Part shown: piece by piece, positions 13,799 through 52,208 of the stretch
Layout: each line of letters opens with the position of its first letter
Position numbering within the stretch: the first letter of the stretch is position 1
DNA from: Escherichia coli
GTDB lineage: Bacteria > Pseudomonadota > Gammaproteobacteria > Enterobacterales > Enterobacteriaceae
DNA: 64,000 bases
NCBI RefSeq assembly: GCF_046105845.1
Contig: NZ_CP151004.1
Reading direction: 5' to 3' (one strand)
Notes under the pieces: model-generated
Database searches by the model: none
The model's input: only the letters and a program-made list of their open reading frames with translations
What the model was told of the DNA's origin: nothing
Translations under genes and position numbers: made by a program

Positions 13799-14044
13799 CT
13801 ACGTAATCAACCTGATTTGCCGAATCCCGACCATCGGCGATGATAGCCCCCGTAATGCGTGGTCCTTATTTCCGATAAGTTTACTTGAGTCTTTAGCTTC
13901 CCATTTCAGCCCACTCTCCCCTGTGTGGGCTTTTTTCATTGCTCTGACCCGTCCTGAATAGCCAAACAATGGCAATGTTCCACTTTGCAGGGATGATAAT
14001 AAGGGGATCTGATTCAGAAGAGTTTTGAAAAGTTGGACCGCCAT
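13799..14044 (-). CDS. yahM: Small uncharacterised protein YahM
   Basis: Internal ATG of the 91 aa track ORF gives 81 aa MAVQLFKTLLNQ..., matching the recalled length and position of K-12 yahM; no function known. Confidence 0.55.
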   Translation of the reverse strand: MAVQLFKTLLNQIPLLSSLQSGTLPLFGYSGRVRAMKKAHTGESGLKWEAKDSSKLIGNKDHALRGLSSPMVGIRQIRLIT

Positions 14045-14456
14045 CGAGGCCTCGAACCCCGTACCATACAACAATCCTGGTTGTCGTCTGCTCTTCCTGA
14101 TGAGCTAATGGCGGTTTTTGATATGAGCCTTACAGCATATTTTCTGTCAGGCTTGAGTGCGATGCGTAAGATACAGAAAAGACCCCACACAAACATGATG
14201 GAATTATGATTTTTTTCATATGAATGTCAACCCACACATTCACAAAACATCTGCATGAGATCATTTTTTATACACCGTATAGCTGCGAAACCACTGCTGA
14301 TGCTTTTTTAAGCGAAGTGTCGCCGATCACAACAAAATATCGGCGAAAAAGGCGGTGGAATGCCATTTGGCATACGGATATACAGATGAAATGATCACCT
14401 GCTTTGCGATTCACTCTCTGGTGGAATAACAACTCGCAGGTGGACCCCTTTCTGAA

Positions 14457-15514: not shown

Positions 15515-16564
15515 TCAGTCTGTTAGTGTGCGATTATCGATAACAAAACGATATTTCACATCACCACGCAGCATTCGCTCATAGGCTTCATTAATTTGAT
15601 CGGCCCGAATCATCTCTATATCAGCCACGATGCCATGTTCGGCGCAAAAATCGAGCATCTCCTGAGTTTCTGGAATGCCGCCAATCATAGAGCCGGCTAT
15701 CGCGCGGCGTTTCATGATCAGGTTGAAAACTTCCGGCGATTTATGCGGTGTCGCAGGCGCACCAACCAGCGTCATGGTGCCATCGCGCTTCAGCAAGGTG
15801 GTAAAATCGTCGAGATTATGTGGCGCAGCTACTGTATTCAAAATGAAATCGAAACTCTTCAGATGAGCCGCCATCTCATCGGCATTGCGTGAGTTAACAA
15901 CTTCATCGGCCCCCAGGGCTTTTGCCGCTTCGCGTTTTGACTCCGAAGTGGTAAATGCCACCACATGTGCCCCCATCGCGTGGGCCAGCTTAATCCCCAT
16001 ATGTCCCAGACCGCCGATGCCAACCACGCCCACTTTTTTACCCGGCCCGGCCTGCCAGTGACGTAGCGGCGAGTATGTGGTGATCCCTGCACACAATAAA
16101 GGAGCCACCGCCGCCAGCTGCTCTTGCGGGTGACGAATACGCAGAACATATCGCTCATGAACGACGATCTGTTGTGAGTAGCCGCCCAGCGTATGGCCCG
16201 GTTCGTCCGGCGTCGGCGAGTTATAGGTGCCGGTCATGTGATCACAGTAGTTTTCCAGCCCGTCTTCACACTCTTCGCAATGTTTACAACTGTCGACAAT
16301 GCAGCCGACACCGACCAGATCGCCCGTCGCATGTTTTTCTACCTGATCACCAACGGCTACCACACGCCCTACAATTTCATGGCCCGGCACGCAGGGATAA
16401 ACCGTCCCCGCCCACTCGGAACGGACCTGGTGGATATCGGAATGGCAGACGCCACAGTAAGCGATTTCAATTTTGACATCATGCGGTCCCGGTTCACGCC
16501 TGGTAATATCCATCGGTTCCAGCGGTTGTTTAGCGGAATATGCACCAACAGCTTTGATCTTCAT
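15515..16564 (-). CDS. yahK: NADPH-dependent aldehyde reductase, zinc alcohol-dehydrogenase family
   Basis: 349 aa ORF with ATG start; zinc-ADH motifs (GVCHSD, GHEIVG, GVVGIGGLGH). Confidence 0.9.
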   Translation of the reverse strand: MKIKAVGAYSAKQPLEPMDITRREPGPHDVKIEIAYCGVCHSDIHQVRSEWAGTVYPCVPGHEIVGRVVAVGDQVEKHATGDLVGVGCIVDSCKHCEECEDGLENYCDHMTGTYNSPTPDEPGHTLGGYSQQIVVHERYVLRIRHPQEQLAAVAPLLCAGITTYSPLRHWQAGPGKKVGVVGIGGLGHMGIKLAHAMGAHVVAFTTSESKREAAKALGADEVVNSRNADEMAAHLKSFDFILNTVAAPHNLDDFTTLLKRDGTMTLVGAPATPHKSPEVFNLIMKRRAIAGSMIGGIPETQEMLDFCAEHGIVADIEMIRADQINEAYERMLRGDVKYRFVIDNRTLTD

Positions 16565-16650
16565 TGTGTTTACTCCTGATTAGCTATGTGTATTTGGCGA
16601 TGCCTGATATGTCATCGCGGCAAAACGCGTCCATTGAATATAGCCAATAT

Positions 16651-17607
16651 TTAAACCACCCGATCCAGCCCCAACATGCCGCGAGCCTGAATGAAACAGA
16701 GCAGCAACGTTCCCCATAAGGCCATCGTCAGGTAGGGACTTATACCGAGAATATTGAAGCCGCTTTCAATAATTTGCAGAAGAAACAGCGCCAGCACCAT
16801 ACCAATTATCCGCCCGCTGCCGCCGTCCGGATTAACCCCGCCGAGTACTGCCGCGAGGATTGACACCAGCAAGTACGATTCGCCATAAGAGGCCTTAGCC
16901 GAGTTGAGTTTCGACATCATCAAAAATGCCGCTACCGCACAAAGCAAGGCGGAAATGACATACACCCATATCAGCACCCGACGAGTGTTAATACCGGAGT
17001 AAAGTGTTGCTCGTTCGTTAGAACCAATCAGATAAATGGATTTACCGAGCGGCGTTTTCTCCAGCAATATCCACAGCCCCAGCGCCACTGCGGCAAACAA
17101 CCACATCGGTAGCGGAATACCGAACCATTGCGCATGATTCAACCACAGCACCCATGAGGGATAATTGGCAATGGCGCTACCACCTGTCACCAGAATATTT
17201 ATCCCTTTGAGCAACGTCATCATCCCAAGCGTTGCAAGAATTGGCGACACTCGAATACCAGCAATCAATACGCCGTTACATAAACCGATTATCACCGCCG
17301 CGCCAGCGCCCGCCAGTAACGTAGCGACAACCGTAGCAATACCCGGTGGATACTGAGTCGCCACCCACGCCATCACCAGTGAACAGGCGTTAGCAGTGGC
17401 AATAATTGACAAGTTAATGCCACCGCAAAGCATGGTCACCGCCATAGCCAACGCCAGAATGCCCAGCACGGGCATTTGCGAAGCGACGGACTGGAAATTA
17501 CTTATCGACCAGAAAATCTCCGGCATAGTAATGCTGAACGCGGCAACCGTTAGCACCAGCAGGCCGATCAAGTAAAACTCAACGTTATTACGCCACGATT
17601 TTTTCAT
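16651..17607 (-). CDS. Sugar ABC transporter permease (second membrane subunit)
   Basis: Polytopic membrane ORF; ATG at 17607 overlaps the upstream permease stop in an ATGA arrangement (track start 17637 is a GTG extension); final gene of a binding-protein/ATPase/permease/permease operon. Confidence 0.8.
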   Translation of the reverse strand: MKKSWRNNVEFYLIGLLVLTVAAFSITMPEIFWSISNFQSVASQMPVLGILALAMAVTMLCGGINLSIIATANACSLVMAWVATQYPPGIATVVATLLAGAGAAVIIGLCNGVLIAGIRVSPILATLGMMTLLKGINILVTGGSAIANYPSWVLWLNHAQWFGIPLPMWLFAAVALGLWILLEKTPLGKSIYLIGSNERATLYSGINTRRVLIWVYVISALLCAVAAFLMMSKLNSAKASYGESYLLVSILAAVLGGVNPDGGSGRIIGMVLALFLLQIIESGFNILGISPYLTMALWGTLLLCFIQARGMLGLDRVV

Positions 17608-18575
17608 AGCAGACTCCGGTTCTGATGCTGACTCCACGCCGTGGCGCTAATGCTGGCAACGATGATGATGCCTGTGATCAATGTTTGCCAGTAAGACGAG
17701 ACTCCCAATAAATTTAGCCCGTTTTGCATCACTGCCAACAACACCACGCCGAGCAAAGTACCGGTTAACGTGCCGCGCCCGCCGAGCAAACTAGTGCCGC
17801 CAAGCACCACCGCAGCCAGTACTGTCAGCTCATAACCCAGAAGAGAATCGGGGGCGACAGTCATCACCGTCCACGACTGCACTACACCCGCAGCGCCAGA
17901 CATCAATCCCATATAGCCATAGACGAAAAGTTGCAGTTTCAGCACGCTAAAGCCGATGCGACTGGCTGATTCACGATTCCCGCCAAGGGCATAAATTTTG
18001 CGCCCTACACTGGTGAAATTCATGATAAACGCTGTCAGCAGCACCACCGTAATCATGGCGATCAGCGGCAGACCAAGGCCATAGTCATAGCCGTCAGCAT
18101 CGGTGTACTTGAACAACATTATCCCCTGCTCAAACCACGGCGGAAAGTCGTACAGCCACACACCTTTACTCAACCATAACAGCAGGCCATAGAAAATATT
18201 CAGCGTCGAAATGGTGATGATGATAGACGGCACCCGTAGGCGATTAACCAGTAAGGCGTTTATTAAGCCAAGTAAAATGCCGATGCCGCCCGCCAGGGCA
18301 AACGCGACAGCAAAGTTGCCACCAATTTTTTGCAGCAACAGCACCATGCCGTATTGCGCAATGATGGTCATTGCCGGAAACGAAATATCAATCCCACCGG
18401 AAATTAACACCACAAACAAACCACAGGCGAGAATAGTCAACATGGCATAGTTATTGGCGAGATCGTACAAATTACCGAATGTCAGAAACTCGTCGCTGCG
18501 CCAGGCAAGGCCGACAAACAGCCCCACAATCAGTAATGCCAGCCAGAATTCATGGCGTTTTTTCAGTTCAGCCAT
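17604..18575 (-). CDS. Sugar ABC transporter permease (first membrane subunit)
   Basis: 323 aa hydrophobic ORF with ATG start, overlapping the ATPase stop by 8 bp. Confidence 0.8.
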   Translation of the reverse strand: MAELKKRHEFWLALLIVGLFVGLAWRSDEFLTFGNLYDLANNYAMLTILACGLFVVLISGGIDISFPAMTIIAQYGMVLLLQKIGGNFAVAFALAGGIGILLGLINALLVNRLRVPSIIITISTLNIFYGLLLWLSKGVWLYDFPPWFEQGIMLFKYTDADGYDYGLGLPLIAMITVVLLTAFIMNFTSVGRKIYALGGNRESASRIGFSVLKLQLFVYGYMGLMSGAAGVVQSWTVMTVAPDSLLGYELTVLAAVVLGGTSLLGGRGTLTGTLLGVVLLAVMQNGLNLLGVSSYWQTLITGIIIVASISATAWSQHQNRSLL

Positions 18576-20052
18576 TTACCACCTCCGCAATTCTGGCCTG
18601 AGAACTGCTGTCAGGCAGGAAGCTATGGGTGATCTGACCTTTTTGCATTACCAAAATCCGGTGGCTTTGATACCACGCTTCTTCAATTTCATCGCAGATC
18701 ATCAATACCGCAATGCCATGAGCCGCCAGATCGCTGATAATGCCGTATATTCCTGCTTTGTTGGCGATATCAACACCGACTGTCGGGCTATCGAGAATCA
18801 ACAGTCGTGGCCCAATCGCCAGCCATTTGGCGATCGATACTCGCTGCGCGTTACCCCCGGAAAGCGTATTCACCGGGAGATGTGGGTCAGAGACTTTGAT
18901 GGTCAATGCCTTGATTAGCCTGTCCACCAGGTCACGCACTTTAGCTTCACTCAGAAAGCCGAAGCGATCTTTTACCTTGTGAAAAACAGTGCTAATGATG
19001 TTGTCTTCAATAGATTGCGCCATCACCAAACCGCGCGACATGCGATCTTCCGAAACATAACCAATACCGTGGCGGATGGCGTCCTGGTTACTATGCAGTG
19101 TAACCGGCTGACCGTTGATGAGGATCTCACCAGCATCCGGTCGGGTCATACCAAACAGACTCAGACATAATTCCGTGCGCCCCGCACCAAGCAGGCCAAC
19201 AATCGACACCACTTCGCCCGCTTCCACCCGCAAGTTAATATTTTGATATTCCCCCTGACGACTTAAATTACGCACCTCCAGCACCCGGGTGCTGGATTTT
19301 CCCTGCCACAACTCTCGCACCTGATATTCAAACTCCTGGCCGGTCATCAGGAAACCGAGTTGTTTTGTGGTCATCTCTGCAGCCGGAAAGGTCCCGACCA
19401 GCTCACCATCTTTCAACACTGAAATACGGTCGGAAACTTCCATCACTTCTTCCAGACGATGACTGACGAAGACCACGCAGATCCCGCGTTCCCGCAATTG
19501 ATGCACCACCTGTAATAACCCTTGCACTTCCTGATGGGTCAGCGAAGCGGTGGGTTCATCCATCACGATCAACCGTGCGTCCTGCGCCAGTGCACGGCAA
19601 ATTGCCACCAGCTGACAGCGGGCAATTGAAAGCTCAGAAACGAGCGTATCCAGTGGCAATGTGACGTTAATACTGGTCATTGCCGCCTGCGCCACCTCAC
19701 GCAGACGACGGCGGTTAACAAACAGACCGTGGTGATAGTGATTCACGGCGATATTCTCCCAGACACTCAGGTTAGGAAATAAAGAGAGGTCCTGATAAAT
19801 CACCTGAATCCCCTGCGCCACCGAAGCGGCGGGTGTCAGCTTTGACCAGTTTTTCCCACCAAGCGTAATTTCCGCCCCCTCATCCGGGCGATAAACACCG
19901 GACATAATTTTAATCAACGTCGATTTACCACAGCCGTTTTGCCCGGCAAGGCAGTGCACCTCACCCGACATAAAGTCGAGAGAAACATCGCGCAGCGCTC
20001 GCGTGGCATGAAACGTTTTGTTGATATGACGAAGGGAAAGGAAGGTTTCCAT
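18568..20052 (-). CDS. Sugar ABC transporter ATP-binding protein (tandem nucleotide-binding domains)
   Basis: About 494 aa from the ATG at 20052 (METFLSLRHINK...); two Walker A-type motifs (GQNGCGKST and GLLGAGRTE) and an LSGGNAQR signature, typical of ribose/galactofuranose/AI-2-type importer ATPases. Confidence 0.85.
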   Translation of the reverse strand: METFLSLRHINKTFHATRALRDVSLDFMSGEVHCLAGQNGCGKSTLIKIMSGVYRPDEGAEITLGGKNWSKLTPAASVAQGIQVIYQDLSLFPNLSVWENIAVNHYHHGLFVNRRRLREVAQAAMTSINVTLPLDTLVSELSIARCQLVAICRALAQDARLIVMDEPTASLTHQEVQGLLQVVHQLRERGICVVFVSHRLEEVMEVSDRISVLKDGELVGTFPAAEMTTKQLGFLMTGQEFEYQVRELWQGKSSTRVLEVRNLSRQGEYQNINLRVEAGEVVSIVGLLGAGRTELCLSLFGMTRPDAGEILINGQPVTLHSNQDAIRHGIGYVSEDRMSRGLVMAQSIEDNIISTVFHKVKDRFGFLSEAKVRDLVDRLIKALTIKVSDPHLPVNTLSGGNAQRVSIAKWLAIGPRLLILDSPTVGVDIANKAGIYGIISDLAAHGIAVLMICDEIEEAWYQSHRILVMQKGQITHSFLPDSSSQARIAEVVNG

Positions 20053-20100
20053 AGCATCCCCTGGCAATAAGAATCGGGGCTTTCGCCCCGAAGAAATGGA

Positions 20101-21087
20101 TTAATAAAGTGAGTCGATATTGTCTTTGTTGACCAGTAATACCTTATGGAAACGGATAATTCGCTTATCCATATCTACGTCGGCCTTACCGAGATTCTCC
20201 ATTTCTAATCCAGGTTTGATCTCTTCACCCTTCAGCAACGTGCTGGCGACGGCCGCGAGTGCGTAACCTGCAGAGGCCGGATCGTAAGTAATCCCTTCAG
20301 TGATATCACCACTTTTAATCAGTGATGCCGCCTGTGAAGGGATCATCATGCCATAGACTGCGACTTTATTTTTCGCCCGTTTCTCTTTCACTGCACGTCC
20401 CGCGCCAATCGGACCGTTTGAACCAAAGGAGACAACCGCTTTCAAGTCAGGATAGGTTTTCATCAGGTCCAGTGTGGTTCGACGTGAGTCATCCACACTC
20501 TCGGCAACCGGCATGCGGCGGGTAACTTCATGCATATCCGGGTAATGCTCTTTCTGGTATTTCACCAGCAAGTCAGCCCATAAGTTATGCTGCGGCACGG
20601 TCAAACTACCCACGTAAATCACATAGCCGCCCTTGCCACCCATGCGTTTCGCCATATGCTCAACATATTCAGCGGCAAATTTTTCGTTATCAATGATTTC
20701 GATATCCCAGTTAGCACTTGGCTGACCGGGGGATTCGTTGGTCAGAACCACAATTCCGGCATCTCGCGCTTTTTTGAATACCGGTTCCAGCACGTTGGCA
20801 TCGTTTGGCACAATTGTAATTGCATTAACCTTACGGGCGATTAAATCCTCAATGATTTTAACCTGTTGCGGAGCATCAGTACTTGAAGGCCCCACCTGTG
20901 ACGCATTAACACCAAAGGCTTTACCCGCCTCGACCACACCTTCGCCCATGCGATTAAACCAAGGCATACCATCGACTTTAGAGATATTCACCACGACTTT
21001 TTCCGCTGCCTGGAGCGGCGCAGAAATTAGCGCAGCGCCTAATAACAGCGAAGACACCATATTGATAACAAAACGTTTATTCATCAT
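20101..21087 (-). CDS. Periplasmic sugar-binding protein of ABC transporter
   Basis: 328 aa ORF with signal peptide (MMNKRFVINMVSSLLLGAALISAPLQA) followed by a periplasmic-binding-protein fold typical of monosaccharide/AI-2 binders; first gene of the transporter operon. Confidence 0.8.
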   Translation of the reverse strand: MMNKRFVINMVSSLLLGAALISAPLQAAEKVVVNISKVDGMPWFNRMGEGVVEAGKAFGVNASQVGPSSTDAPQQVKIIEDLIARKVNAITIVPNDANVLEPVFKKARDAGIVVLTNESPGQPSANWDIEIIDNEKFAAEYVEHMAKRMGGKGGYVIYVGSLTVPQHNLWADLLVKYQKEHYPDMHEVTRRMPVAESVDDSRRTTLDLMKTYPDLKAVVSFGSNGPIGAGRAVKEKRAKNKVAVYGMMIPSQAASLIKSGDITEGITYDPASAGYALAAVASTLLKGEEIKPGLEMENLGKADVDMDKRIIRFHKVLLVNKDNIDSLY

Positions 21088-21337
21088 TTCAGCCTCATTG
21101 CAGGGTAGTCAGGAAGTGTTCGCCCAAATTAGCGCGCTGGAGAGAATAAGAATTTTCGAATATTTTTATGCAGAATAAACAGCCCTATTTCAGGCAGCTA
21201 TTAAAAATTTGGTTATAAATATGGACAAAACGGGCAGAAACAATAAGTGTGACAATCATCACGTAAAAAATAGCAAAATAAACAAAATTAGCGATACTTT
21301 ATGTTTGTGAGCTTATTTCGCGTAGAAAAATAGTTAT

Positions 21338-21748
21338 CTACACAACGTCAATAAGGGCATATTCTTCAAAGATAACGTCCATTTCGGGTGAATAGTATCC
21401 TTCTGCCTGGAAAAAACGACGGTGTTCATTACGCCAATATTCAAGACTGAGGTCACCTTCACCTTCCTTACGGGCAAGCTCCGCGGTGACATCAGAAAAG
21501 CGCAGTAAATGCAGGCCAATCACTCTGATAACACAGACAGGCTCACCACGGCTATTTTCTACAATCTTATACTCACCAATCATCGGAAATGCGTTGTCTT
21601 CAATACATCCCGCCAGCGAACCACAGGAAGCTGTTTTAACACCAGTCGCAATCAACGTTGCGAGGTGATCGGCCAACGCTGCTGAATCGCCAAAAGTACA
21701 AAAGGAAGCATGGGGATATTTTTGTGAGATTTTTTCTTTTATGGTCAT
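21338..21748 (-). CDS. ASCH-domain-like small protein (uncharacterised)
   Basis: ORF track start 21778 is a TTG; ATG at 21748 gives about 136 aa MTIKEKISQKYPHASFCTFGD...; the ASCH call is from recalled similarity only; sits upstream of the ABC transporter on the same strand. Confidence 0.5.
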   Translation of the reverse strand: MTIKEKISQKYPHASFCTFGDSAALADHLATLIATGVKTASCGSLAGCIEDNAFPMIGEYKIVENSRGEPVCVIRVIGLHLLRFSDVTAELARKEGEGDLSLEYWRNEHRRFFQAEGYYSPEMDVIFEEYALIDVV

Positions 21749-22047
21749 GAGAATATTTTCGCGATTACGGAAAAACAAATCACATCTTAATTACTGTTGA
21801 TAACCATCAGCAAGAGTATCATTGGTTTTTCGATACTGAATCTTTTTTATCCGAAGCAGGTCACATTTATGGCCTGATAAATACCTTTGTTAAAACTCAC
21901 TTTTGTGTATTTCTCTCAAATAATCCCCTGGAAATTATGCCGGGAGATTATAAAGTTCAGGATCATTCATTAGCAAACCATTGCTGCCCCACTCCCTGGG
22001 GCTTTAAATCTCTTACGATTCACCATTGCAGGCGTTTCAAATGCGTA

Positions 22048-23430
22048 TCAACCTGCCACACTCCCCCACACCAGTTGTCCTTTATGGAACGTTGCCGTTC
22101 TCGGCGAGATACGCGCCACCGCCTCGGCGGAACAGGAGGCGTCCACCAGCACAAAACTGGCGTCATCCTGCGCTTTGGGCCACACGCGCTCGCCTTTTTC
22201 ATTCAGCGGCAATACATCGCCAGTGGCTAAAAACAGCGAACGGGACAAATTCTGTTCGTTAGGGCGAATATAGAGCTGCGCGTACAGATTGGCTTTTTCC
22301 AGCATGTCGCCCAGGCCGTAAGGTGACCAGTGGTCGATAACGCTGTCAGTTCCTGTCATGACTTTTACGCCTTTGTCGTGCAGTTGTTTGAGCGGCATAT
22401 GCAGCGTGCCAATCGGCACCGTCGAAGCGATAGAAATTTGCTGCGCCGCCATCCGGTGCGCCAGTTCATCTACCTGTTGTTCGTTGAGCGTTGCCAGCGC
22501 GAAGGCGTGGCTGATGGTCAGCTTGCCCTTCAGCTGTGGCGTTTTCTCTACCGTTTCAACCATATAGTTGATGGCTGCCACGCCTGCCGGAGTGGTTTCG
22601 TGCAGGTGAATATCGACGCCTTTGTCGTAGTCCAGCGCAATCTGGAACATGGTGTCGAGGGATTTTTCCATCGCGCCATCAACACTGGTTGGGTCCAGCC
22701 CGCCGACGTAATGCGCCCCCGCCTGCATCGCTTCGCGCATTAAGGGTTCTGATTTCGACAGCAGCAAACCGTGCTGCGGGAAGGCGACAATTTCACACTC
22801 GAAGCCCGCCTGACGTCGCGCCAGCACCGCCTGCAAATTTTGCAGATTTTTCAGGCCGGAAACCGGTTCGATATTGCAGTGGCTGCGGGCAATGGTAGTG
22901 CCTTTCGACTGCAATAAATCGATCAGTTTTTCCGCTCGTTCCTGAGTGTACGGTTGCAGCTCCGGCAGCATTTTCTGCTCGAGTTTGATCATGTCCTGGA
23001 TGGTGGTGCCTGCCGGGCGATTGAGCGAGCGCCACGGCCCGCCGTAAAAGGTTTTGTCGAGATGAATATGCATGTCACGGGTGGTGGGCAGCATCAGCTT
23101 ACCGCCAGCGTCATAGTGCGGCAGCGTGGCGTCCGGATGCTGCTTGTTCTCGCGCAGGGCAACAATTTTGCCGTTCTGAATCTCTACGGTCTGGTGCGCC
23201 GTGCGGGTCTGTACCGCCACGCCATTTTCGTAGTCAAAACCGGTTTCCAGCAGCACGTTGTCGAGATAGTAGTGCGGGTCAGTGATTTTCATGGTGTTAT
23301 TCGCGTCGCAGTGGGTTGTGCCAGAGACTGCCGCATGGGCGAGCGGCACAGAGGTACCAAACAGCGCGGCGGCGGTGACCATCTTACCGCTCTGGCTCAG
23401 AAACTCACGGCGGCTATTGTTTTTTTTCAT
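22048..23430 (-). CDS. yahJ: Amidohydrolase-family deaminase YahJ with Tat-type signal peptide
   Basis: 460 aa ORF with ATG start; N-terminal SRREFL twin-arginine motif followed by a hydrophobic stretch and AHA cleavage-like site; metal-dependent hydrolase motifs (HIHLD). Confidence 0.9.
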   Translation of the reverse strand: MKKNNSRREFLSQSGKMVTAAALFGTSVPLAHAAVSGTTHCDANNTMKITDPHYYLDNVLLETGFDYENGVAVQTRTAHQTVEIQNGKIVALRENKQHPDATLPHYDAGGKLMLPTTRDMHIHLDKTFYGGPWRSLNRPAGTTIQDMIKLEQKMLPELQPYTQERAEKLIDLLQSKGTTIARSHCNIEPVSGLKNLQNLQAVLARRQAGFECEIVAFPQHGLLLSKSEPLMREAMQAGAHYVGGLDPTSVDGAMEKSLDTMFQIALDYDKGVDIHLHETTPAGVAAINYMVETVEKTPQLKGKLTISHAFALATLNEQQVDELAHRMAAQQISIASTVPIGTLHMPLKQLHDKGVKVMTGTDSVIDHWSPYGLGDMLEKANLYAQLYIRPNEQNLSRSLFLATGDVLPLNEKGERVWPKAQDDASFVLVDASCSAEAVARISPRTATFHKGQLVWGSVAG

Positions 23431-23439
23431 CTTACGTCC

Positions 23440-24390
23440 TTACGTTTTAATAATATGGGTGCCCGTTTCGCCACGCAGCGCCGCGGGCAGGCATTCCGGC
23501 GTGGTGATAATCACTTCTTTACCGCCCTGTTCCAGGAACGTCAGGCTGGCGATGATTTTTGGCAACATGCTGCCAGGCGGAAAATGCCCTTCCTGCATAT
23601 AGCGGGTCATGGTGGCAATATCCACCCGATCCAGCGCCTGCTGCTGCGGTTTGCCAAAGTGAATACACACTTTTTCGACGCCGGTGGTGATCACCAGAAT
23701 GTCGGCGTGAATTTCACGGGCCAATAGCGCGGTAGAGAGATCTTTGTCGATAACCGCGTCCACACTTTGGTAATCTCCCGCTTCGGTGCGCACCACAGGA
23801 ATTCCGCCGCCGCCCGCGCCAATCACCACAAAGCCTTGTTGGATCAGCGCCTTAATGGCCGGTGCTTCGACAATACGTTTCGGTTCCGGCGAGGCGACCA
23901 CGCGGCGATAGCCCCGTCCGGCATCTTCAACAAAACGCCAGTCAGGGTTTGCCTTTTGTAATTCGTCACGCTGGCTTTCACTAAAGAATGCGCCGATGGG
24001 CTTGGTGGGATGGGCAAACCCCGGATCGTTTTTATCCACTTCCACCTGAGTCACCACGGTGACGGCTTTTTTCTCGCCGTGACGCGCCAGTCGGTTATTC
24101 AGCGCCTGTTGGATCAGATAGCCAATGCCGCCTTGCGTATCCGCCACACAGTTCGCCAGCGGCGTTAAGGGCAGCCCTTCGCGCTCGTGGGCTATCTCCG
24201 CGCGGCGTAAATCCAGACCGACCTGCGGCCCGTTGCCGTGGGTCAGCACAATGTCGTAATCGGAAGCCAGCATTTCCAGCACCGTATCGGCCACGGCTTT
24301 CACCGCCTCCGCCTGATGCTCAATCGACTGGCTGGCGTTATCTTTGATAATGCTGTTGCCACCAATGGCAACGACCACAAGTTCTTTCAT
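23440..24390 (-). CDS. yahI: Carbamate kinase-like protein YahI
   Basis: ORF track gives 374 aa from an upstream extension; ATG at 24390 gives 316 aa MKELVVVAIGGNSI... with the amino-acid kinase fold characteristic of carbamate kinases. Confidence 0.9.
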   Translation of the reverse strand: MKELVVVAIGGNSIIKDNASQSIEHQAEAVKAVADTVLEMLASDYDIVLTHGNGPQVGLDLRRAEIAHEREGLPLTPLANCVADTQGGIGYLIQQALNNRLARHGEKKAVTVVTQVEVDKNDPGFAHPTKPIGAFFSESQRDELQKANPDWRFVEDAGRGYRRVVASPEPKRIVEAPAIKALIQQGFVVIGAGGGGIPVVRTEAGDYQSVDAVIDKDLSTALLAREIHADILVITTGVEKVCIHFGKPQQQALDRVDIATMTRYMQEGHFPPGSMLPKIIASLTFLEQGGKEVIITTPECLPAALRGETGTHIIKT

Positions 24391-24484
24391 GTTGTTATGT
24401 CCGCTACAGAGGGTGATGGGGTTATGAGAGTGAGGTTGCCCCTCTCCCCAGAAGGGAGAAGGGATCGTAAGGTGCGTTTGCAGG

Positions 24485-25903
24485 TCAGACGCCGTAACGT
24501 TCGCACCAGCCAAGAATGGCTTTTTCGAAGCAGGCGAATGGTGGATGCACAATGCCCGCGCCAATCATGCCGACGCCCGCATCTTTATGGGCGATGGCGG
24601 TGTTGATCACTGGCAGAATGCCGCTACTGCCCACGCGGGTGATGTCGATTGCCGACGGCACGCCCATAAAACCGAGCAGCGGAATGGTGACGTTGGGGTT
24701 TTCACCGAGAGTGATTTCACGCATCTGGCGGGAGAAATCGATAGCCTCTTCCACCGTGCCGCCCACCAGCGCAACGATTGCAGGCGCGGTCGCCATGGCA
24801 AATCCGCCAATGCCGTAGGTTTCAGTGATGGCGCTGTCGCCGATATCCAGCCCCGAATCTTCCGGCTTATAACCGGCAAACATCGGCCCGATCACCTGCT
24901 GCGCCGGACCGGTAAACCATTGCCCCGGTAATCCGCTGACCCGCAGGCCGAACTCGACGCCGTTACGCGCCATGGTGGTCACCACAGTGCTGTATTCGAT
25001 GCCGTGCGCCGCATCCATCGCCGCTTTACACATCGCCATCCACGTCGGGCCGGAGAAGTAGTCACTGCTGGCGACAAACTCAAACACTTCGCGCTGTTGC
25101 TCGACGGAGTAGCCCGCCTGAATAATCCCCGGCGTCAGCGCCTGAATCAGCAGCGTCGTCCCGGCGTTATTGCGGTTATGGCACTCATCGCCCATATGCA
25201 GCGCCTGCGCCAGCATTAAGCGCAGATCGATCTCGCCGATAATTTTCATCGCATCGCGCAGCATGGGCCCCTGCACATCGCGCATCCAGTTGAGGCGGTC
25301 GATCACGCTCTGGTCGTTAGCGCCCATACGCAAAATCTTCGCCATCTGCTCGCTCATATTGGTGTAAGCGATGTTGCCGTAGGTTTTGTTTTTCACGATG
25401 TGCATAAACATCGAGGCCGAGGTAACACCCGCCATCGATCCCACACAGTCGTGTTCATGGCACGGCGAGAAGGTGATCTCCCCGGAGGCCGCCAGGTCAG
25501 CCGCCTCGTCGAGATCTTTCGCCAGCCCTTCGAACACCAGCGCCCCGGTGACCGCGCCTTTCATTGCGCCGCACATTTTTTCCCAGGTCACTGGCGGCCC
25601 GGCGTGAAGAATGGTTTTCGGCGTCATTCCCGGCACCACGTTAATCGCCTGATCAAAACCAATCAGCACCGGATGCGACTGGATAATGCGCTCCAGCGCC
25701 TGCTGGTTAGCGGCGGCGATTTTGTCCGCCAGCGGGGAATCGGCAATGTTGTCCAGCGCCTGCACCACCTGCATATTGCCCTGCCCCGGCGGCGTCCAGT
25801 CGAGTTGAGTCACTTCTACATGCTGCTTTTTCAGGTCATCGCTAAACATGGCGATGCCGACGTTAATAACGTTCAATGGTTGGCTAAACAGTGACTGGCT
25901 CAT
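24485..25903 (-). CDS. yahG: DUF1116-family protein YahG
   Basis: 472 aa ORF with ATG start overlapping the yahF stop (ATGA); gene order as K-12 yahEFG. Confidence 0.88.
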   Translation of the reverse strand: MSQSLFSQPLNVINVGIAMFSDDLKKQHVEVTQLDWTPPGQGNMQVVQALDNIADSPLADKIAAANQQALERIIQSHPVLIGFDQAINVVPGMTPKTILHAGPPVTWEKMCGAMKGAVTGALVFEGLAKDLDEAADLAASGEITFSPCHEHDCVGSMAGVTSASMFMHIVKNKTYGNIAYTNMSEQMAKILRMGANDQSVIDRLNWMRDVQGPMLRDAMKIIGEIDLRLMLAQALHMGDECHNRNNAGTTLLIQALTPGIIQAGYSVEQQREVFEFVASSDYFSGPTWMAMCKAAMDAAHGIEYSTVVTTMARNGVEFGLRVSGLPGQWFTGPAQQVIGPMFAGYKPEDSGLDIGDSAITETYGIGGFAMATAPAIVALVGGTVEEAIDFSRQMREITLGENPNVTIPLLGFMGVPSAIDITRVGSSGILPVINTAIAHKDAGVGMIGAGIVHPPFACFEKAILGWCERYGV

Positions 25904-27450
25904 CAGGCTTCCTCCCCTTTGCAGATAAATTCACGCGCCAGCAATCCGGTATTGGTGCTACTGCTGGCCAGAGTCACTCCGGCATCAAGCAGCATCTGGC
26001 TTTGTTGTTCTAATGATGGCGTATCAAGATCGGTACCCAGCACATAGGCGAGAATGATCAACTCACGTCCTTCGGCAGCGGCGATCGCTTTCGCCTCTTT
26101 GATCGCCTCGATGGTGGAACCGACCGGATCTTCATGCGATCCAAATCCGAGCACAAAATCCATCACGATCACCGCCACTTCTGGATCGCGCGCCTCTTCG
26201 ATCAAGCGGCTGATACGGTTGGTCGGGTCAATCATTGGATGCGGCTTGCCGTTGGTGAAGTCGTCATCGCCAAAGTCGAGGAAGGTGTGTTTGATGCTGC
26301 GGTTGATATCTTGCAGGCGGAATTCAGGATCGGGCTGAATATTGCTGTAGACATCGCCATGTTTTTCCATCACCGCGAACATGGTTTCGTCACACAGCGT
26401 ACCGCCGCAGAACAGGCCACGAATGTATTTCTGCTGCGGTTGCAGGCGAGCGCGCACGTCAGCAATCAACGACTGGTTCAGCGTATGCAGCTCGAGATGT
26501 TCCTGTTTCACGCCGGAGAGCATCACCGCTTTCAATGCCGCCTCTTTACTGCCGCGGGCAAACTGTAGCCCCTGCTCATCCACTGGCGTTTCGCCACGAC
26601 CGAGGAAGCAGACCACCACCGGCTTGCGGCAGGCACGTGCGCGTTCCAGCACTTTGCGGGCCACCGCAGGCGCAGGCGGTTTGGAGATAAGCACAATGAT
26701 TTCAGTTTGCGGATCGTTTTCCAGCATCCCGATGGCGTCGAGCATCATCAGGCCGCCGATTTTCTCGCTCAGGTCGCGCCCGCCGGTGCCAATCAGTTGC
26801 GAAACGCCGCCGCCAAATTCATGGATACGGACGCTCAGCTCCTGGCTGCCGGTGCCAGATGCGCCAACAATACCGATGTTGCCGCGACGCACGGCGTTAC
26901 CAAAGCAGAGCGCCGCGCCGTTGATAATCGCCGTGCCGCAGTCTGGCCCCATCATCAGCAGCCCTTTTTCGTGGGCCAGTTGTTTGAGCGCCAGTTCATC
27001 TTCAACTGAGACGTTATCGGAAAACAGCATCACGTTAAGATCGTTTTGCAGTGCCTGACGCGCTTCGCGAGCAGCAAACAGACCGTTGACCGAAATCACC
27101 GCCAGGTTACTTTCCGGGATATGCTTTTTGGCGCTGGCAATAGTGGCGTAACGCGCCTCGTGCGAGCCGCTTTGCGCTTTGGTGTTGAACAGTTCTTCAA
27201 TCTCCACCAGCAACTGCTCGTTGTCTGCGCCCGCTTTGCCGTTAATGACAATCATCAGGTCGCCGTTTTTCGCCTGCTCCAGCTCCGGCGTCAGCAGCCC
27301 TAAATTCTTCAGTACGCCTTTGTTCATTTCGGTCGCCATCGCCACAAATGCCTGCTCGACGCCGTCGAGTTTATTTGCACGCGTGGAGATAGACATCAGC
27401 GAGACAGAATCAAAATAGGTATTCGGTTTAATGACTATTTTAACTGACAT
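25903..27450 (-). CDS. yahF: CoA-binding / succinyl-CoA-synthetase-like protein YahF (FdrA paralog)
   Basis: 515 aa ORF with ATG start; CoA-ligase alpha-subunit-like glycine-rich motifs. Confidence 0.88.
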   Translation of the reverse strand: MSVKIVIKPNTYFDSVSLMSISTRANKLDGVEQAFVAMATEMNKGVLKNLGLLTPELEQAKNGDLMIVINGKAGADNEQLLVEIEELFNTKAQSGSHEARYATIASAKKHIPESNLAVISVNGLFAAREARQALQNDLNVMLFSDNVSVEDELALKQLAHEKGLLMMGPDCGTAIINGAALCFGNAVRRGNIGIVGASGTGSQELSVRIHEFGGGVSQLIGTGGRDLSEKIGGLMMLDAIGMLENDPQTEIIVLISKPPAPAVARKVLERARACRKPVVVCFLGRGETPVDEQGLQFARGSKEAALKAVMLSGVKQEHLELHTLNQSLIADVRARLQPQQKYIRGLFCGGTLCDETMFAVMEKHGDVYSNIQPDPEFRLQDINRSIKHTFLDFGDDDFTNGKPHPMIDPTNRISRLIEEARDPEVAVIVMDFVLGFGSHEDPVGSTIEAIKEAKAIAAAEGRELIILAYVLGTDLDTPSLEQQSQMLLDAGVTLASSSTNTGLLAREFICKGEEA

Positions 27451-28303
27451 AATTCCCTCCGTAGGTTTGGCTCAGCGCACAACCATCGGCCATGCCATAC
27501 AGCATGTCGCAGCCGGAACTGGAGCCAATATGTTTAATTTTTTCTATTGCCTGAGTTGCGTTCCCAGGGATGTCATAAATAATGTTATGAATAAAACGAT
27601 GAATATTTTCCCGGCAGCGTTGTTGTAATGCGGCTTCCAGCGTTATGGCACTTAATAACGTGGTATTATTTCTGCCGCGTTGCAGACCGAGATAAAATTC
27701 CTCTTTGTATTTTTCCGCCGGATGTCCGGAAATAAATAAAATAAGCGCCAGACCTGTTAAATAATCGTCGGCTGATGGCGTAAGGCCAATCCCTAAGCCC
27801 ATCATACTGGCGACTGCTGAGGCGATATTTTGTTTATCGTTTACGGCCTGAATAACTGCCCGTCGTTTAATATGTAATTCTTTATTTAACGCCTGATAAA
27901 ACGGATTATCGCCGCAATAATTAAACAGGGTTTCATTTTCCCCCAGGTGCTGATGAATAATGTCATGCCACTGTTGCCAGGCGATAAGGTGAAAATTCAC
28001 AGCGGTCATTTGCAAGGTTGGGGACAGCCAACGCCGACAACGACTCATCTCTATATGAAGATGTTGACCAACCGTAATGCCTTGATCGTCAAACTGAACC
28101 TTATCACCATGCCGGAACAGACCATCAAAGTGAGTGAGTGCCAACCGACAACTGTTTGGCGCATTGTCATACTCTTCACAAAGCAGCGTCAGCAACTGCT
28201 GGCGGGCCGGAAGTGCGATATTTACCGCTCTGGCAAAGACCTGTTCAACCTGTCCTTGCCCCCGCTGTGCCAGAAAATCCGCATCCGCAGTTAGCGCCCA
28301 CAC
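27440..28303 (-). CDS. yahE: Uncharacterised protein YahE (YlbF paralog)
   Basis: 287 aa ORF (GTG start in track) overlapping the yahF start by 11 bp. Confidence 0.8.
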   Translation of the reverse strand: MWALTADADFLAQRGQGQVEQVFARAVNIALPARQQLLTLLCEEYDNAPNSCRLALTHFDGLFRHGDKVQFDDQGITVGQHLHIEMSRCRRWLSPTLQMTAVNFHLIAWQQWHDIIHQHLGENETLFNYCGDNPFYQALNKELHIKRRAVIQAVNDKQNIASAVASMMGLGIGLTPSADDYLTGLALILFISGHPAEKYKEEFYLGLQRGRNNTTLLSAITLEAALQQRCRENIHRFIHNIIYDIPGNATQAIEKIKHIGSSSGCDMLYGMADGCALSQTYGGNYVS

Positions 28304-28342
28304 ACACCGTCTTTCTGGTGTGTTGATAGCAAGCCTCCCGGT

Positions 28343-28948
28343 TTATGCACCTGCGGCAATCAGTAACTGTGCAATCTCTTCAAAGCCTCGTTCCCGCGCC
28401 AGTTCCAGCGGCGTTTTGCCATATTTATCCGTCATGTGCGGGCTGGCACCGTGTTCCAGCAATAACTGGACAATCGCCTGCTGTTTAATCCCGCCATCAT
28501 TAAGCACAATTGCTTCCAGTAGCGGCGTCCAGCCAACATGGTTGGTCTGGTTAACGTTAATCTCCGTATGCGCCAAAAGCTCTTTTACAATACTTAAATG
28601 GCCTTTTTCACAGGCAGGCGTCAGGCCGACACCGCCAAAACGGGTGACGCAATTAAGATCAGGTTTAGCCGGTAAAATAATCCGTAACAGGGTTAAATCG
28701 CCGGTCAGGCAGCTAATTAAAAAAGGATTTGAACATATTTGATCTTGCTTATTAATATCCGCTCCGGCATCAATTAATGCCTGAACGCAAGCATATTGCT
28801 GATATAAACTTGCCAGCGTAATTGCCGTTTTCCCCTGACGATCGCAGGTATTAATATCGACACCCAGCGCAAGGCATGTTTTTACTTTATCGATATCACC
28901 CTGTTGCGCAGCCAATAAATAGTCGGCAGGTAGATTTTTTATAGTCAT
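28343..28948 (-). CDS. yahD: Ankyrin-repeat protein YahD
   Basis: 201 aa ORF with ATG start; repeated ankyrin-like motifs (GxTPL...A...G-hydrophobic-LL..GA). Confidence 0.88.
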   Translation of the reverse strand: MTIKNLPADYLLAAQQGDIDKVKTCLALGVDINTCDRQGKTAITLASLYQQYACVQALIDAGADINKQDQICSNPFLISCLTGDLTLLRIILPAKPDLNCVTRFGGVGLTPACEKGHLSIVKELLAHTEINVNQTNHVGWTPLLEAIVLNDGGIKQQAIVQLLLEHGASPHMTDKYGKTPLELARERGFEEIAQLLIAAGA

Positions 28949-29205
28949 TCACATTCCCCTGGTTTTTGTGGCTGTTTTCGATGAATTGAGAATAGCAACG
29001 ATAATCTGATAAAAGAACCCGCTTAAATTTAATTCGCCGTATTTCGCCTTTTTGTTGAATGATGTTCAACAATCTTTTCGCAGTGTGCGGTAGTGCAATA
29101 TTTGTTTCTTTGACCCGATACCCTTTCACTCAATCAGGTTTTATTTCTCTATAGTCTGCACATGTAAGAGTAGCTTTCGTCCATGTCTAACCAGAGGGGA
29201 ACAAG

Positions 29206-29703
29206 ATGAACGGACTCACGGCAACGGGTGTCACCGTCGGTATTTGTGCAGGGCTTTGGCAGTTAGTGTCTTCACATGTCGGGCTCTCTCAGGGATGGGA
29301 ATTATTAGGAACTATTGGCTTCGTCGCCTTTTGCAGTTTTTATGCCGTAGGCGGCGGTAAATCGGGGTTTATCAGAAGCCTGGCGGTTAATTATTCTGGG
29401 ATGGTGTGGGCGTTTTTCGCCGCGCTGGCTGCCGGTTGGCTGGCCTCGGTGAGTGGATTGTCCACGTTCTGGGCGAGCGTGATTATGACTGTACCCTTCT
29501 CGGCGGTGGTGGTCTGGCAAGGACGTTTCGGTTTATTGTCTTTTATTCCCGGAGGCTTTCTCGGCATGACGCTATTTTTTGCCAGCGGGATGAACTGGAC
29601 GGTGACATTACTGGGTTTTCTGGCGGGTAACTGCGTGGGGATAATTTCAGAATATGGCGGACAAAAATTAAGCGAAGCGACGACTAAACGCGACGGGTAT
29701 TAA
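29206..29703 (+). CDS. yahC: Small inner-membrane protein YahC
   Basis: 165 aa hydrophobic ORF, ATG start with GAGGGGA ribosome-binding site upstream. Confidence 0.85.
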   Translation: MNGLTATGVTVGICAGLWQLVSSHVGLSQGWELLGTIGFVAFCSFYAVGGGKSGFIRSLAVNYSGMVWAFFAALAAGWLASVSGLSTFWASVIMTVPFSAVVVWQGRFGLLSFIPGGFLGMTLFFASGMNWTVTLLGFLAGNCVGIISEYGGQKLSEATTKRDGY

Positions 29704-29794
29704 AAGTTATTCAAAAATGATTATCTATCTTTAACCGATACCTCTACAGTCATGGCTGGAGAAATTCATATTCGATAATGGCGGGAATGGTTTA

Positions 29795-30727
29795 ATGAAC
29801 TCAATTTTTACCGAAGAGAATCTGTTGGCATTTACTACCGCTGCGCGTTTTGGCAGCTTCAGTAAAGCCGCAGAAGAGTTGGGTTTAACCACTTCCGCCA
29901 TTAGCTACACCATCAAGCGAATGGAAACAGGGCTGGATGTGGTGCTGTTCACTCGCAGTACCCGAAGCATTGAGTTAACGGAGTCCGGGCGTTATTTTTT
30001 CCGCAAAGCTACCGACCTGCTGAATGATTTTCACGCCATCAAACGCAGCATCGATACTATTTCGCAGGGTATAGAAGCACGGGTGCGCATTTGTATTAAC
30101 CAACTGCTTTATACGCCCAAACACACCGCACGCTTATTACAGGTACTGAAAAAGCAGTTTCCAACCTGCCAGATTACCGTGACGACCGAAGTGTATAACG
30201 GCGTCTGGGATGCGATTATTAATAATCAGGCGAATATTGCTATCGGCGCGCCCGACACACTGCTGGACGGCGGCGGCATTGATTACACGGAGATTGGCGC
30301 AATTCGCTGGGCTTTTGCTATCGCCCCGGATCACCCATTAGCCTTTGTGCCGGAGCCGATCGCCGAAAGCCAACTGCGTCTCTATCCTAATATCATGGTG
30401 GAGGACACCGCGCATACGATTAATAAAAAAGTGGGCTGGTTGCTGCATGGGCAGGAGTCGATTCTGGTGCCAGATTTCAACACCAAATGTCAGTGCCAGA
30501 TTTTAGGTGAAGGAATTGGTTTTTTGCCGGATTACATGGTCCGTGAGGCGATGGCGCAATCCCTGCTGGTTACCCGACAAATCCATAATCCGCGCCAGGA
30601 TTCACGCATGTTACTCGCAACTCAGCATTCTGCTACGGGTCAGGTGACGCAGTGGATTAAAAAACAATTTTCGCCAAATGGCATATTAACGGGGATCTAT
30701 CAGGATTTACTGCATCGGGAGAATTAA
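29795..30727 (+). CDS. yahB: LysR-family transcriptional regulator YahB
   Basis: 310 aa ORF with ATG start and N-terminal LysR HTH (FTTAARFGSFSKAAEELGLTTSAISYTIKRME). Confidence 0.9.
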   Translation: MNSIFTEENLLAFTTAARFGSFSKAAEELGLTTSAISYTIKRMETGLDVVLFTRSTRSIELTESGRYFFRKATDLLNDFHAIKRSIDTISQGIEARVRICINQLLYTPKHTARLLQVLKKQFPTCQITVTTEVYNGVWDAIINNQANIAIGAPDTLLDGGGIDYTEIGAIRWAFAIAPDHPLAFVPEPIAESQLRLYPNIMVEDTAHTINKKVGWLLHGQESILVPDFNTKCQCQILGEGIGFLPDYMVREAMAQSLLVTRQIHNPRQDSRMLLATQHSATGQVTQWIKKQFSPNGILTGIYQDLLHREN

Positions 30728-31857: not shown

Positions 31858-32734
31858 GAACACACCTTTTATCTTTTATCGCTGTTCAGTATGAGTGATT
31901 ACCTGTGGATTCCTGAGCACACATAAGGGGTAACCATAAACATCAGCGATGCCATACGCATAACATCCCACATCACTATCAAAAAGATTATCTTTACCTC
32001 TGATGCTCGCTCAAAAACAGTTACGCTAAATACCTTAAAAAGGTAATCACAAGTCAAACTCAGGAGATAATCACGCAAGAATGCAATATTAAAATTCAGA
32101 TACTCATTTTTGGTAATAAAGAAGTAGTTGGACTATTTCAATATTTATAATTTCCCACTACGTATTGACGCCCATTCATGAGTAAAGGCGCATTATATGA
32201 ATTTAACAATCCAGATCAACTGAAAATACCTCAACCTCATAAACACATAGCGTCAACATTCAATGACATAATGAGTAAAGATGTTGGTTATGCATACACG
32301 TCATTACTCTATGCCTATCCCTTAACAACCTGCTTTTTAAGGCTGAATCCATTCAGCAATAGATGGCCAACATTATAACAATGACAATAAAAACAATATT
32401 TAAAACAATCAATAAAATATCAGACACAGACAATTAAACCTTAAACAACAAACAGTTACATTGATTTTAGTTGATTTGCGCTACGCGTTTCCCATGAATA
32501 AAGCGTCATTTCAAATTAGCACCAATATTTACATTAAATAAGACTAAGCTTATTGAACATTCACAACAGTCCAAGCGTAGGTTTTGGGCTTCAATAGTTC
32601 TTTTCTTTTTTATTATCTGTTGCCTGGCAATCATCAATCGATACTAAGGGCTTAACTGTACACAGATATAACGTATCAAGAGGTAAGAGAAACCGCGCCA
32701 TATGCAGACATGGCGCGGTTTTATGCAATAACAA

Positions 32735-34768: not shown

Positions 34769-34896
34769 CCAGTATCCCCACTGTTATTGTTACCATTTAA
34801 AATCAAATTCGTAACAATTAAGACACATTTTATATTGAACGTCCAATCAATAACCGCTTTAATAGATAAACAACGCTGATGAATGGAGTGGCGAAA
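34769..34896. promoter_or_regulatory. Divergent betT / betIBA promoter-operator region
   Basis: 128 bp AT-rich intergenic region between divergently transcribed betT and betI; known site of BetI-mediated choline regulation (operator not mapped here). Confidence 0.5.
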
Positions 34897-35484
34897 ATGC
34901 CCAAATTGGGGATGCAGTCGATCCGGCGCAGACAACTGATCGACGCCACGCTGGAAGCAATCAATGAGGTGGGCATGCACGATGCAACGATCGCGCAGAT
35001 CGCCCGCCGTGCAGGCGTTTCTACGGGGATCATCAGCCACTATTTCAGGGACAAAAATGGTCTGCTGGAAGCAACCATGCGCGATATCACCAGTCAGCTG
35101 CGTGACGCGGTTTTGAATCGATTACATGCACTTCCGCAGGGCAGTGCAGAGCAGCGATTACAGGCGATTGTTGACGGGAATTTCGATGAAACGCAGGTCA
35201 GTAATGCTGCGATGAAAGCCTGGCTGGCGTTCTGGGCCAGCAGTATGCATCAGCCGATGCTTTACCGTTTGCAGCAGGTGAGCAGCCGCCGCTTATTGTC
35301 GAATCTGGTGAGCGAATTTCGCCGCGAGTTACCGCGCCAACAGGCACAGGAAGCGGGCTACGGCCTTGCCGCGCTGATTGACGGATTATGGCTGCGCGCG
35401 GCACTGAGCGGCAAACCGCTGGATAAACCTCTCGCACACTCGCTGACCCGTCACTTTATTACTCAGCATTTACCCACCGATTAA
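34897..35484 (+). CDS. betI: TetR-family repressor BetI
   Basis: ATG at 34897 is preceded by GGAG; gives 195 aa [19 protein letters not shown]... with TetR HTH. Confidence 0.92.
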
Positions 35485-35497
35485 CCGAGGAGACGTG

Positions 35498-36970: not shown

Positions 36971-36983
36971 CCAGGAGGTTTAT

Positions 36984-40299: not shown

Positions 40300-40311
40300 A
40301 ACAGTACCTTC

Positions 40312-40327
40312 TGATTCAAAATGTCAG
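40312..40327. repeat. Left inverted repeat of candidate invertible element
   Basis: TGATTCAAAATGTCAG; exact reverse complement occurs at 40574-40589. Confidence 0.85.
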
Positions 40328-52197: not shown

Positions 52198-52208
52198 GGA
52201 TGTTTACA

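Follow-up and report, generated by a model that had tools for sequence, protein, structure and literature searches.

Sequence comparison places the aau D-ribulose importer locus between yahK and yahJ of an Escherichia coli strain and points to its deletion from K-12

The subject of this report is the block at positions 16565-22047 of a 64,000-nucleotide (nt) stretch of Escherichia coli DNA (NCBI RefSeq assembly GCF_046105845.1, contig NZ_CP151004.1; the whole stretch is called the window below). The block is the exact interval from the yahK start codon to the yahJ stop codon and holds five open reading frames (ORFs), all on the minus strand. Judged by sequence, it is the published Aau locus of enterohemorrhagic E. 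coli (EHEC), aauABCD (Z0415-Z0419 of O-island 17), together with a neighboring ASCH-domain gene native to Escherichia. We hold with high confidence the explanation as a whole, namely, that Aau is a D-ribulose importer served in trans by the ara regulon and that the K-12 state of the site arose by deletion. The system is already known, and the present work is a correct rediscovery of it. The genes of the block and its flanks are as follows (lengths in amino acids [aa]).

15515-16564, minus strand: yahK, NADPH-dependent aldehyde reductase (left flank)
16651-17607, minus strand: aauD, permease 2, 318 aa (ATG at 17607, a start chosen after the O157 RefSeq homologue; ATGA overlap with aauC)
17604-18575, minus strand: aauC, permease 1, 323 aa (start overlaps the aauB stop by 8 nt)
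18568-20052, minus strand: aauB, tandem-domain ATPase with two ATP-binding cassettes (ABC), 494 aa, intact
20101-21087, minus strand: aauA, periplasmic D-ribulose-binding protein, 328 aa, with a Sec signal peptide ending ..LQA/AEK
21338-21748, minus strand: ASCH-domain gene (PF04266), 136 aa, YhfF type, intact
22048-23430, minus strand: yahJ, amidohydrolase family, with a twin-arginine-type signal, SRREFL (right flank)

The initial annotation of this DNA had described about 5.5 kb between yahK and yahJ encoding a binding protein, a tandem ATPase, two permeases, and an ASCH-like protein; all are where it placed them, in the order binding protein, ATPase, permease, permease on one strand. The overlaps of start and stop codons that it pointed out are real (ATGGCTGA, 8 nt, for aauB/aauC; ATGA, 4 nt, for aauC/aauD), a Shine-Dalgarno-like sequence precedes both overlapping starts, and translational coupling is likely. 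It was right, too, that neither a kinase nor a regulator lies inside the block; AraC and AraB act in trans (PMC11127945, PMC12307932). All five genes are free of internal stop codons, and each product differs from its O157:H7 EC4115 counterpart at 2 to 5 residues (5 in AauB).

The aau genes have the architecture of a CUT2-type importer: a two-cassette ATPase some 500 aa long, permeases of the RbsC type, and a sugar-binding protein in the periplasm. AauB matches AraG/XylG/RbsA/YtfR-type models (NCBIfam) over nearly its full length at 377 to 425 bits (425 bits over residues 5-492 for AraG-type tandem ATPases), and the LsrA model matches too; both permeases match RbsC/AraH/LsrD-type models with E values of 1e-42 to 1e-48. 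Aau shares its tandem ATPase, its permeases of the RbsC type, and its type I binding protein with the CUT2 systems LsrACDB, RhaSTPQ, RbsABC, AraFGH, and YtfQRT-YjfF. The binding protein falls far below every equivalog cut-off (NCBIfam: RhaS, 136.9 bits against 342.25; LsrB, 111.1 against 384; RbsB, 46 against 337), and Aau is therefore a member of none of those systems. The RhaS rhamnose importer, tried as a candidate, was rejected on its score and on gene context.

The identification with Aau is made because the binding protein matches the AauA structure (PDB 9I1M) over its full length (residues 1-328, 711.9 bits, E 1e-213), because all six D-ribulose-contacting residues are kept, and because gene order and flanks are those of EC4115. 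In that O157:H7 genome the layout is likewise yahK-permease-permease-ATPase-binding protein-ASCH-yahJ, at 98.0% nucleotide identity to the window. AauA itself departs from the O157 sequence only at D200V and E297Q, neither of which lies in the pocket. More broadly, EHEC Aau occupies the same locus, its proteins are 98-99% identical to those of the window, and order, flanks, ligand residues, and promoter elements match. EHEC EDL933 differs in that its ATPase carries two locus tags (Z0416-7), and its derivative TUV93-0 is reported to encode a nonfunctional Aau (PMC12307932), whereas the window genes are all intact. No sequence feature contradicts the assignment.

What does this transporter carry, and what is it for? 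Aau was described as the "accessory L-arabinose uptake" transporter of EHEC, O-island 17, Z0415-Z0419 (Cottam et al., Nat Commun 2024, PMC11127945), and a second paper reported the AauA structure, PDB 9I1M (Cottam et al., Nat Commun 2025, PMC12307932). The locus is induced exclusively by L-arabinose, and induction is lost in a delta-araC mutant of EHEC (PMC11127945). In the streptomycin-treated mouse gut, competition puts a delta-aau mutant at a disadvantage of about 100-fold (PMC11127945), and this already published competitive advantage is why Aau matters. The initial annotation had held that the substrate cannot be inferred; it is in fact known from experiment, as AauA binds D-ribulose with a dissociation constant (KD) of 1.98 uM and L-arabinose weakly, with a KD of 598 uM (PMC12307932). 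The contacts to alpha-D-ribulose in the crystal structure are K37, W43, E118, H167, E196, and S223 (PMC12307932), the six residues kept in the window. Growth benefits from D-ribulose only when L-arabinose is present, and AraB is required (PMC12307932). Ligand, AraC dependence, AraB dependence, and gut fitness are thus experimental results obtained by others, and the present analysis contributes the identity with Aau, the intactness of the genes, and the conservation of the ligand residues; from the sequence we infer where operator and promoter lie, that CRP contributes, and what a hairpin described below does.

In total, these observations are consistent with a mechanism in which AauA would capture alpha-D-ribulose (and, weakly, L-arabinose) in the periplasm and hand it over to the permeases AauC and AauD, with the tandem ATPase AauB supplying the energy, in the manner of a CUT2-type binding-protein-dependent ABC importer. 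A P_BAD-like promoter upstream of aauA would be activated by AraC with L-arabinose and probably also by cAMP-CRP. The imported D-ribulose would be phosphorylated by the co-induced L-ribulokinase AraB and enter the pentose phosphate pathway. In this model a kinase and a regulator inside the block are unnecessary because the ara regulon supplies AraB and AraC in trans.

A useful contrast is the Rbl system of Citrobacter rodentium (ROD_24811-61), which has the same transporter architecture and preferred sugar and is reported to come with a D-ribulokinase and an isomerase of its own and to be responsive to D-ribulose (PMC12307932). Rbl-type homologues, found in the species scan described below, are about 60% identical to AauA; in one, in Citrobacter amalonaticus (L064), long ORFs lie directly downstream of the cassette, the first encoding 546 aa. 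Aau-type loci, unlike Rbl, consist of an orphan cassette of four genes behind a CRP/AraC promoter, and no kinase ORF was found in or beside the window block, which has no co-operonic D-ribulokinase and isomerase.

Of the rival explanations, the one that survives best is the 2024 interpretation, according to which Aau is mainly an accessory high-capacity L-arabinose importer and D-ribulose a side activity. Induction exclusively by L-arabinose via AraC fits it, as do the partial growth improvement of an araE mutant upon Aau overexpression and the conservation of a P_BAD-like operator across genera. The experimental data go the other way: the affinity of AauA for L-arabinose is about 300-fold lower than that for D-ribulose, D-ribulose produces a thermal shift of 16 degrees C and L-arabinose one of 2 degrees C (PMC12307932), and an Aau-dependent growth benefit appears only upon addition of D-ribulose. 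We consider a transporter devoted mainly to L-arabinose improbable and retain D-ribulose import as the function of Aau.

How the ara regulon might reach this promoter can be addressed by comparison, given that no aau operator is mapped in PMC11127945 or PMC12307932. We aligned the 270 bp 5' of aauA from the window, O157, a divergent Escherichia, Franconibacter (two species), Klebsiella pneumoniae, Mangrovibacter (two), and Symbiopectobacterium (two records). Mean column identity is 49%, and two blocks stand out as conserved: GTGA-N6-TCACA, and TTTT(A/G)TCCATAT followed 4 nt on by TAGC, with TCCATAT invariant across genera. The elements predicted from these blocks, and the hairpin, are as follows.

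21248-21263, minus strand: predicted CRP site CGTGA-TGATTG-TCACA, conserved in 13 promoters from 5 genera
21199-21236, minus strand: predicted AraC operator, with I1-like TGCCCGTTTTGTCCATA (21236-21220), a 4-nt spacer, and I2-like TAACCAAATTTTTAATA (21215-21199)
21172-21177, minus strand: predicted -10 hexamer TATTCT, 21 nt downstream of I2, placed by geometry alone
20074-20091, minus strand: stable GC-rich hairpin with a GAAA loop in the aauA-aauB spacer, directly after aauA (the spacer folds at about -18 kcal/mol)

Transcription is predicted to start near 21165. In all 13 promoters (5 genera), the CRP-like site lies 11 nt upstream of I1 and the I1-I2 spacer is 4 nt. The same order is found in K-12 P_BAD (CRP site, I1, 4 nt, I2, a weak -35, and -10), and in both promoters I1 ends in TCCATA and I2 starts with TAGC/TAAC; the gap from I2 to the -10 (TACTGT in P_BAD) is 20 nt in P_BAD and 21 nt in aau, and that from CRP site to I1 is 13 nt and 11 nt, respectively. 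The composite pattern GTGA-N6-TCAC-N18-30-TCCATA occurs once in the 64-kb window and in none of 100 shuffles, and it sits at the equivalent position in 10 loci; it is absent from cassette homologues of 83% identity or less. Based on this pattern and its conservation across genera, direct control of aau by AraC and CRP through the predicted CRP, I1, and I2 sites appears plausible. The hairpin recurs with different sequences at the same position in O157, L032 (a divergent Escherichia genome introduced below), Franconibacter, Klebsiella, Mangrovibacter, Yersinia, and Leclercia, and it would probably act as a partial terminator or mRNA stabilizer that raises the binding protein relative to the membrane components.

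Is the block an insertion, or is its absence a deletion? In K-12 MG1655 (NC_000913.3), yahJ and yahK are adjacent and 376 bp apart and the block is absent, as the initial annotation had stated. The K-12 spacer is a composite of recognizable pieces. The first joins the 86-bp yahK-aauD spacer to the last 72 bp of aauD (156 of 158 positions identical); the last 23 codons of aauD that it retains encode ALWGTLLLCFIQARGMLGLDRVV and a stop, identical in protein sequence to AauD, and RefSeq annotates a 75-bp pseudogene "missing N-terminus" at this relic. The second, of about 63 bp, is a diverged copy of the distal ASCH-aauA spacer that has lost 18 bp and has the right half of the CRP site at its end; the idea that it is unrelated filler was rejected upon alignment with L032 and Escherichia sp. 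E2593. The third is 67 bp across the ASCH stop codon (63 of 67 identical), of which 48 bp are coding and specify the last 15 codons, EMDIIFEEYALIDVV and a stop. A 26-bp filler at the Delta2 junction and 62 bp otherwise found downstream of yahJ complete the spacer. Relative to the window, two segments are missing.

About 16723-21241 (4.5 kb): Delta1, missing from K-12, NC101, and E2593; most of aauD, aauC, aauB, aauA, the core promoter, and the AraC sites
About 21386-21984 (0.6 kb): Delta2, absent solely from the short allele of the K-12/NC101 type; comprises most of ASCH together with the region upstream of it

Because gene fragments cannot predate their genes, the K-12 state must derive from a longer one by two deletions. 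On this sequence evidence, we regard it as effectively settled that the K-12 type came about by deletion; we take the block to be the older state at the site, with Delta1 probably followed by Delta2.

The census of complete E. coli genomes bears on how widespread the two states are. The full block is present in 2210 of 5426 (about 41%), and the remaining matches, sampled at even intervals, uniformly have a short site of 694 bp. The ASCH segment by itself is found in 2213 complete genomes, against 2210 for the block; therefore, ASCH and aau appear to have been lost together in E. coli. The initial annotation's "strain-specific" does not describe a locus of this frequency, which is moreover the published O-island 17 Aau locus. 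Close relatives of the window are rare, with at least 99% identity in only 5 of 5106 matching records, and the host belongs to an E. coli lineage that has seldom been sampled. The closest complete genome, E. coli 19KM1831 (L084, 22169-23572), has aauB annotated as 1404 bp, or 467 aa (against 494 aa in the window and O157), and separated from aauA by 130 bp, which may reflect an N-terminal lesion or an alternative start. The census also contained plasmid records (10 block matches and 2 ASCH-segment matches) and 323 complete E. coli genomes without any match to the yahK-yahJ interval.

Two divergent Escherichia lineages extend the comparison beyond E. coli, where yahK is 97-99% identical between strains. 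The first, L032, is labelled "E. coli" and is 88.6% identical to the window at yahK and 86.3% at yahN. It carries aau collinear with yahK at 91-93% nucleotide identity, compared with 83-89% for the flanks, and aau is therefore no more diverged than its flanks. The second, E2593 (yahK 89.6% identical), has yahJ, an intact ASCH gene, and yahK, and it is without aau. Its 236-bp ASCH-yahK spacer has the aauD relic, breakpoint, and 18-bp deletion of K-12, and derived bases within the relic CRP site are common to both. NC101 resembles K-12, with aauD and ASCH relics both present. No relic-free site was found: K-12, NC101, and E2593 all carry the aauD relic, a set that does not include the junctions of E. 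fergusonii, E. albertii, and E. marmotae. The simplest history starts from an ASCH-aauABCD-yahK ancestor, followed by one old Delta1 found in E. coli and in the cryptic lineage and then by Delta2 on the E. coli short haplotype. Sequences to the left of the Delta1 breakpoint group by species and those to the right by allele, a pattern that suggests recombination after the deletion.

The opposite view, taken in the initial annotation and in the label "horizontally acquired O-island," is that a genomic island was recently inserted, in a strain-specific manner, into an ancestral K-12-like yahJ-yahK junction. Indeed, K-12, NC101, and ST648 lack the block and only part of the complete genomes have it, the ASCH segment is low in G+C content (0.40-0.42), and the cassette is patchy across the Enterobacterales in differing contexts. 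In a scan of one genome per species, close AauA orthologues turned up in L032, in the L004 contig (see below), and patchily in other genera: Franconibacter, Klebsiella, and Mangrovibacter (90-92%) as well as Symbiopectobacterium, Aeromonas, Yersinia, Providencia, Pasteurellaceae, and Vibrio. Outside Escherichia it is always the same four-gene cassette, in unrelated contexts and never with ASCH, yahJ, or yahK, and AauA found no match in the representatives of named Escherichia species such as E. fergusonii and E. albertii. Against a recent insertion stand the in-frame 3' relics of aauD and ASCH and the degenerate promoter piece at the supposedly empty site, none of which can predate the genes; the deletion scar in every aau-less site examined; the unremarkable G+C content of aau (0.48-0.54); and the collinearity of aau with yahK in a lineage about 11% diverged at yahK. 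No island signatures were found at the block (integrase, insertion sequence, adjacent tRNA, flanking direct or inverted repeats, structured RNAs). We consider a recent insertion very improbable and, for the K-12 comparison, refuted, with two divergent lineages carrying either aau at the site or the same scar.

Several points nonetheless weigh against the account of an ancestral, ara-controlled Aau as given here. The missing AauA match in the sister-species representatives is one, and the patchy spread in unrelated contexts makes an earlier horizontal entry into an Escherichia ancestor likely. A search for single AraC half-sites (TAGC-N7-TCCATA, up to 2 mismatches) found 34 in the window with 46 expected, which is uninformative by itself; the argument for AraC and CRP is made because the composite pattern and its cross-genus conservation are informative where a single half-site is not, and binding of either protein to the proposed sites is something we infer. 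The experiments were done in other strains, and function in the window strain would follow from its sequence. The araC and araBAD genes lie outside the window, and we assume their presence in this genome.

Weighing both sides, we think it somewhat more probable than its denial that two statements hold jointly: that O-island 17/aau is an older Escherichia state rather than a pathogen acquisition, its absence from K-12, B2, and other lineages being due to one old 4.5-kb deletion allele that a cryptic Escherichia lineage has as well and that afterwards lost the ASCH gene too, and that aau-type cassettes in at least five genera are direct members of the AraC/CRP regulon with a fixed operator geometry.

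The weakest rival, an autoinducer-2 (AI-2) importer of the Lsr type, has in its favor the RefSeq name and a distant likeness to LsrB structures (88 bits) and to LsrA/LsrC/LsrD models, and we give it next to no credence in view of the missed LsrB cut-off, the absence of lsrK, lsrR, lsrF, and lsrG nearby (the neighbors are yahK, ASCH, and yahJ-yahD), a crystal structure with D-ribulose bound at a KD of about 2 uM (PMC12307932), and a predicted promoter of the AraC/CRP type. On the missed cut-off and the lack of nearby lsr genes, it was rejected as a candidate; of the importer classes named in the initial annotation, the monosaccharide type stands and the AI-2 type falls. RefSeq (WP_001042108.1 / WP_001042105.1) names AauA "autoinducer 2 ABC transporter substrate-binding protein" in all carriers examined, and this name is a propagated and unsupported misannotation.

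The ASCH gene (Pfam PF04266, E 6.5e-22, residues 27-133; nearest structures PDB 1T62 and 3S9X) is, as far as its sequence context indicates, a transcription unit of its own, located upstream of the aau promoter, native to the Escherichia locus and outside the mobile cassette. One candidate promoter precedes it.

21947-21976, minus strand: sigma-70-like promoter match TTGCTA-18-TATAAT upstream of ASCH (10 of 12 positions, a consensus match only)

A functional link between ASCH and the cassette was rejected, as ASCH lies near the cassette in 0 of 80 non-E. coli loci. ASCH amidohydrolases of the YqfB type are N4-acetylcytidine deacetylases (PMC6972931). The window protein has the ASCH fold in common with them and, by inspection, a G-x-K-T motif (GVKT) where YqfB has its catalytic Lys-Thr, but it belongs to a different subfamily (YhfF/1T62/3S9X, 136 aa, with an EGEGD-SL-YW motif) without an arginine at the position of YqfB Arg26; a 2026 ASCH preprint makes no mention of 1T62, 3S9X, YhfF, or DUF984. 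Our best guess, held with low confidence, is that it may be a small amidohydrolase whose substrate is an N-acylated base or nucleoside.

Several observations concern the surroundings. YahJ, a cytosine-deaminase-like protein, has an N terminus (MKKNNSRREFLSQSG...AHA) that looks like a twin-arginine export signal and would imply a periplasmic enzyme; its gene adjoins a carbamate kinase and an AllF/AllG/AllH-like set (yahE, yahF, yahG). Window positions 22048-27450 (yahJ, yahI, yahG, yahF) are unusually polymorphic, with about 95-97% identity among the window, K-12, O157, and NC101. Across yahJ-yahF, E2593 is about 95-96% identical to E. coli, no more distant than the strains are from one another, and at yahK the identity to E2593 is 89%; this pattern suggests old haplotypes or interlineage recombination in the yahF-J cluster. 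L032 is without window positions 21438-30668, 32672-46063, 49116-52969, and 53937-59774; the missing parts include the 5' portion of ASCH (beyond 21437) and the whole yahJ-yahD cluster, its sequence resumes at 30669, and by this comparison several other parts of the window are variable across the genus. The L004 contig (SFEK01000152.1, 4.7 kb), filed under the metagenome-assembled genome Bacteroidales bacterium W0P29.034, is 98.8% identical in nucleotides to the window aau operon and almost certainly comes from E. coli, mis-binned into a species-representative genome. Finally, ARAGORN calls a tRNA-Ser(gga) at 14034-14114 (minus strand), in the yahM-yahL interval outside the block; Rfam gives no match up to E 1, the feature is unannotated in K-12 and in the closest genome, and it is probably spurious.

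The widespread AI-2 product name of AauA could mislead quorum-sensing surveys. A testable operator model (CRP, I1, I2, and -10 at 21172-21263), conserved across genera, is a modest addition to what has been published on Aau. For the comparison with K-12, the framing of the locus as an insertion or as horizontally acquired is reversed, as it is K-12 that carries deletion scars. If the ancestral reading is true, then alleles for presence and absence of aau have either coexisted for a long time or recombined across lineages, which would be compatible with niche-dependent selection on the scavenging of D-ribulose.

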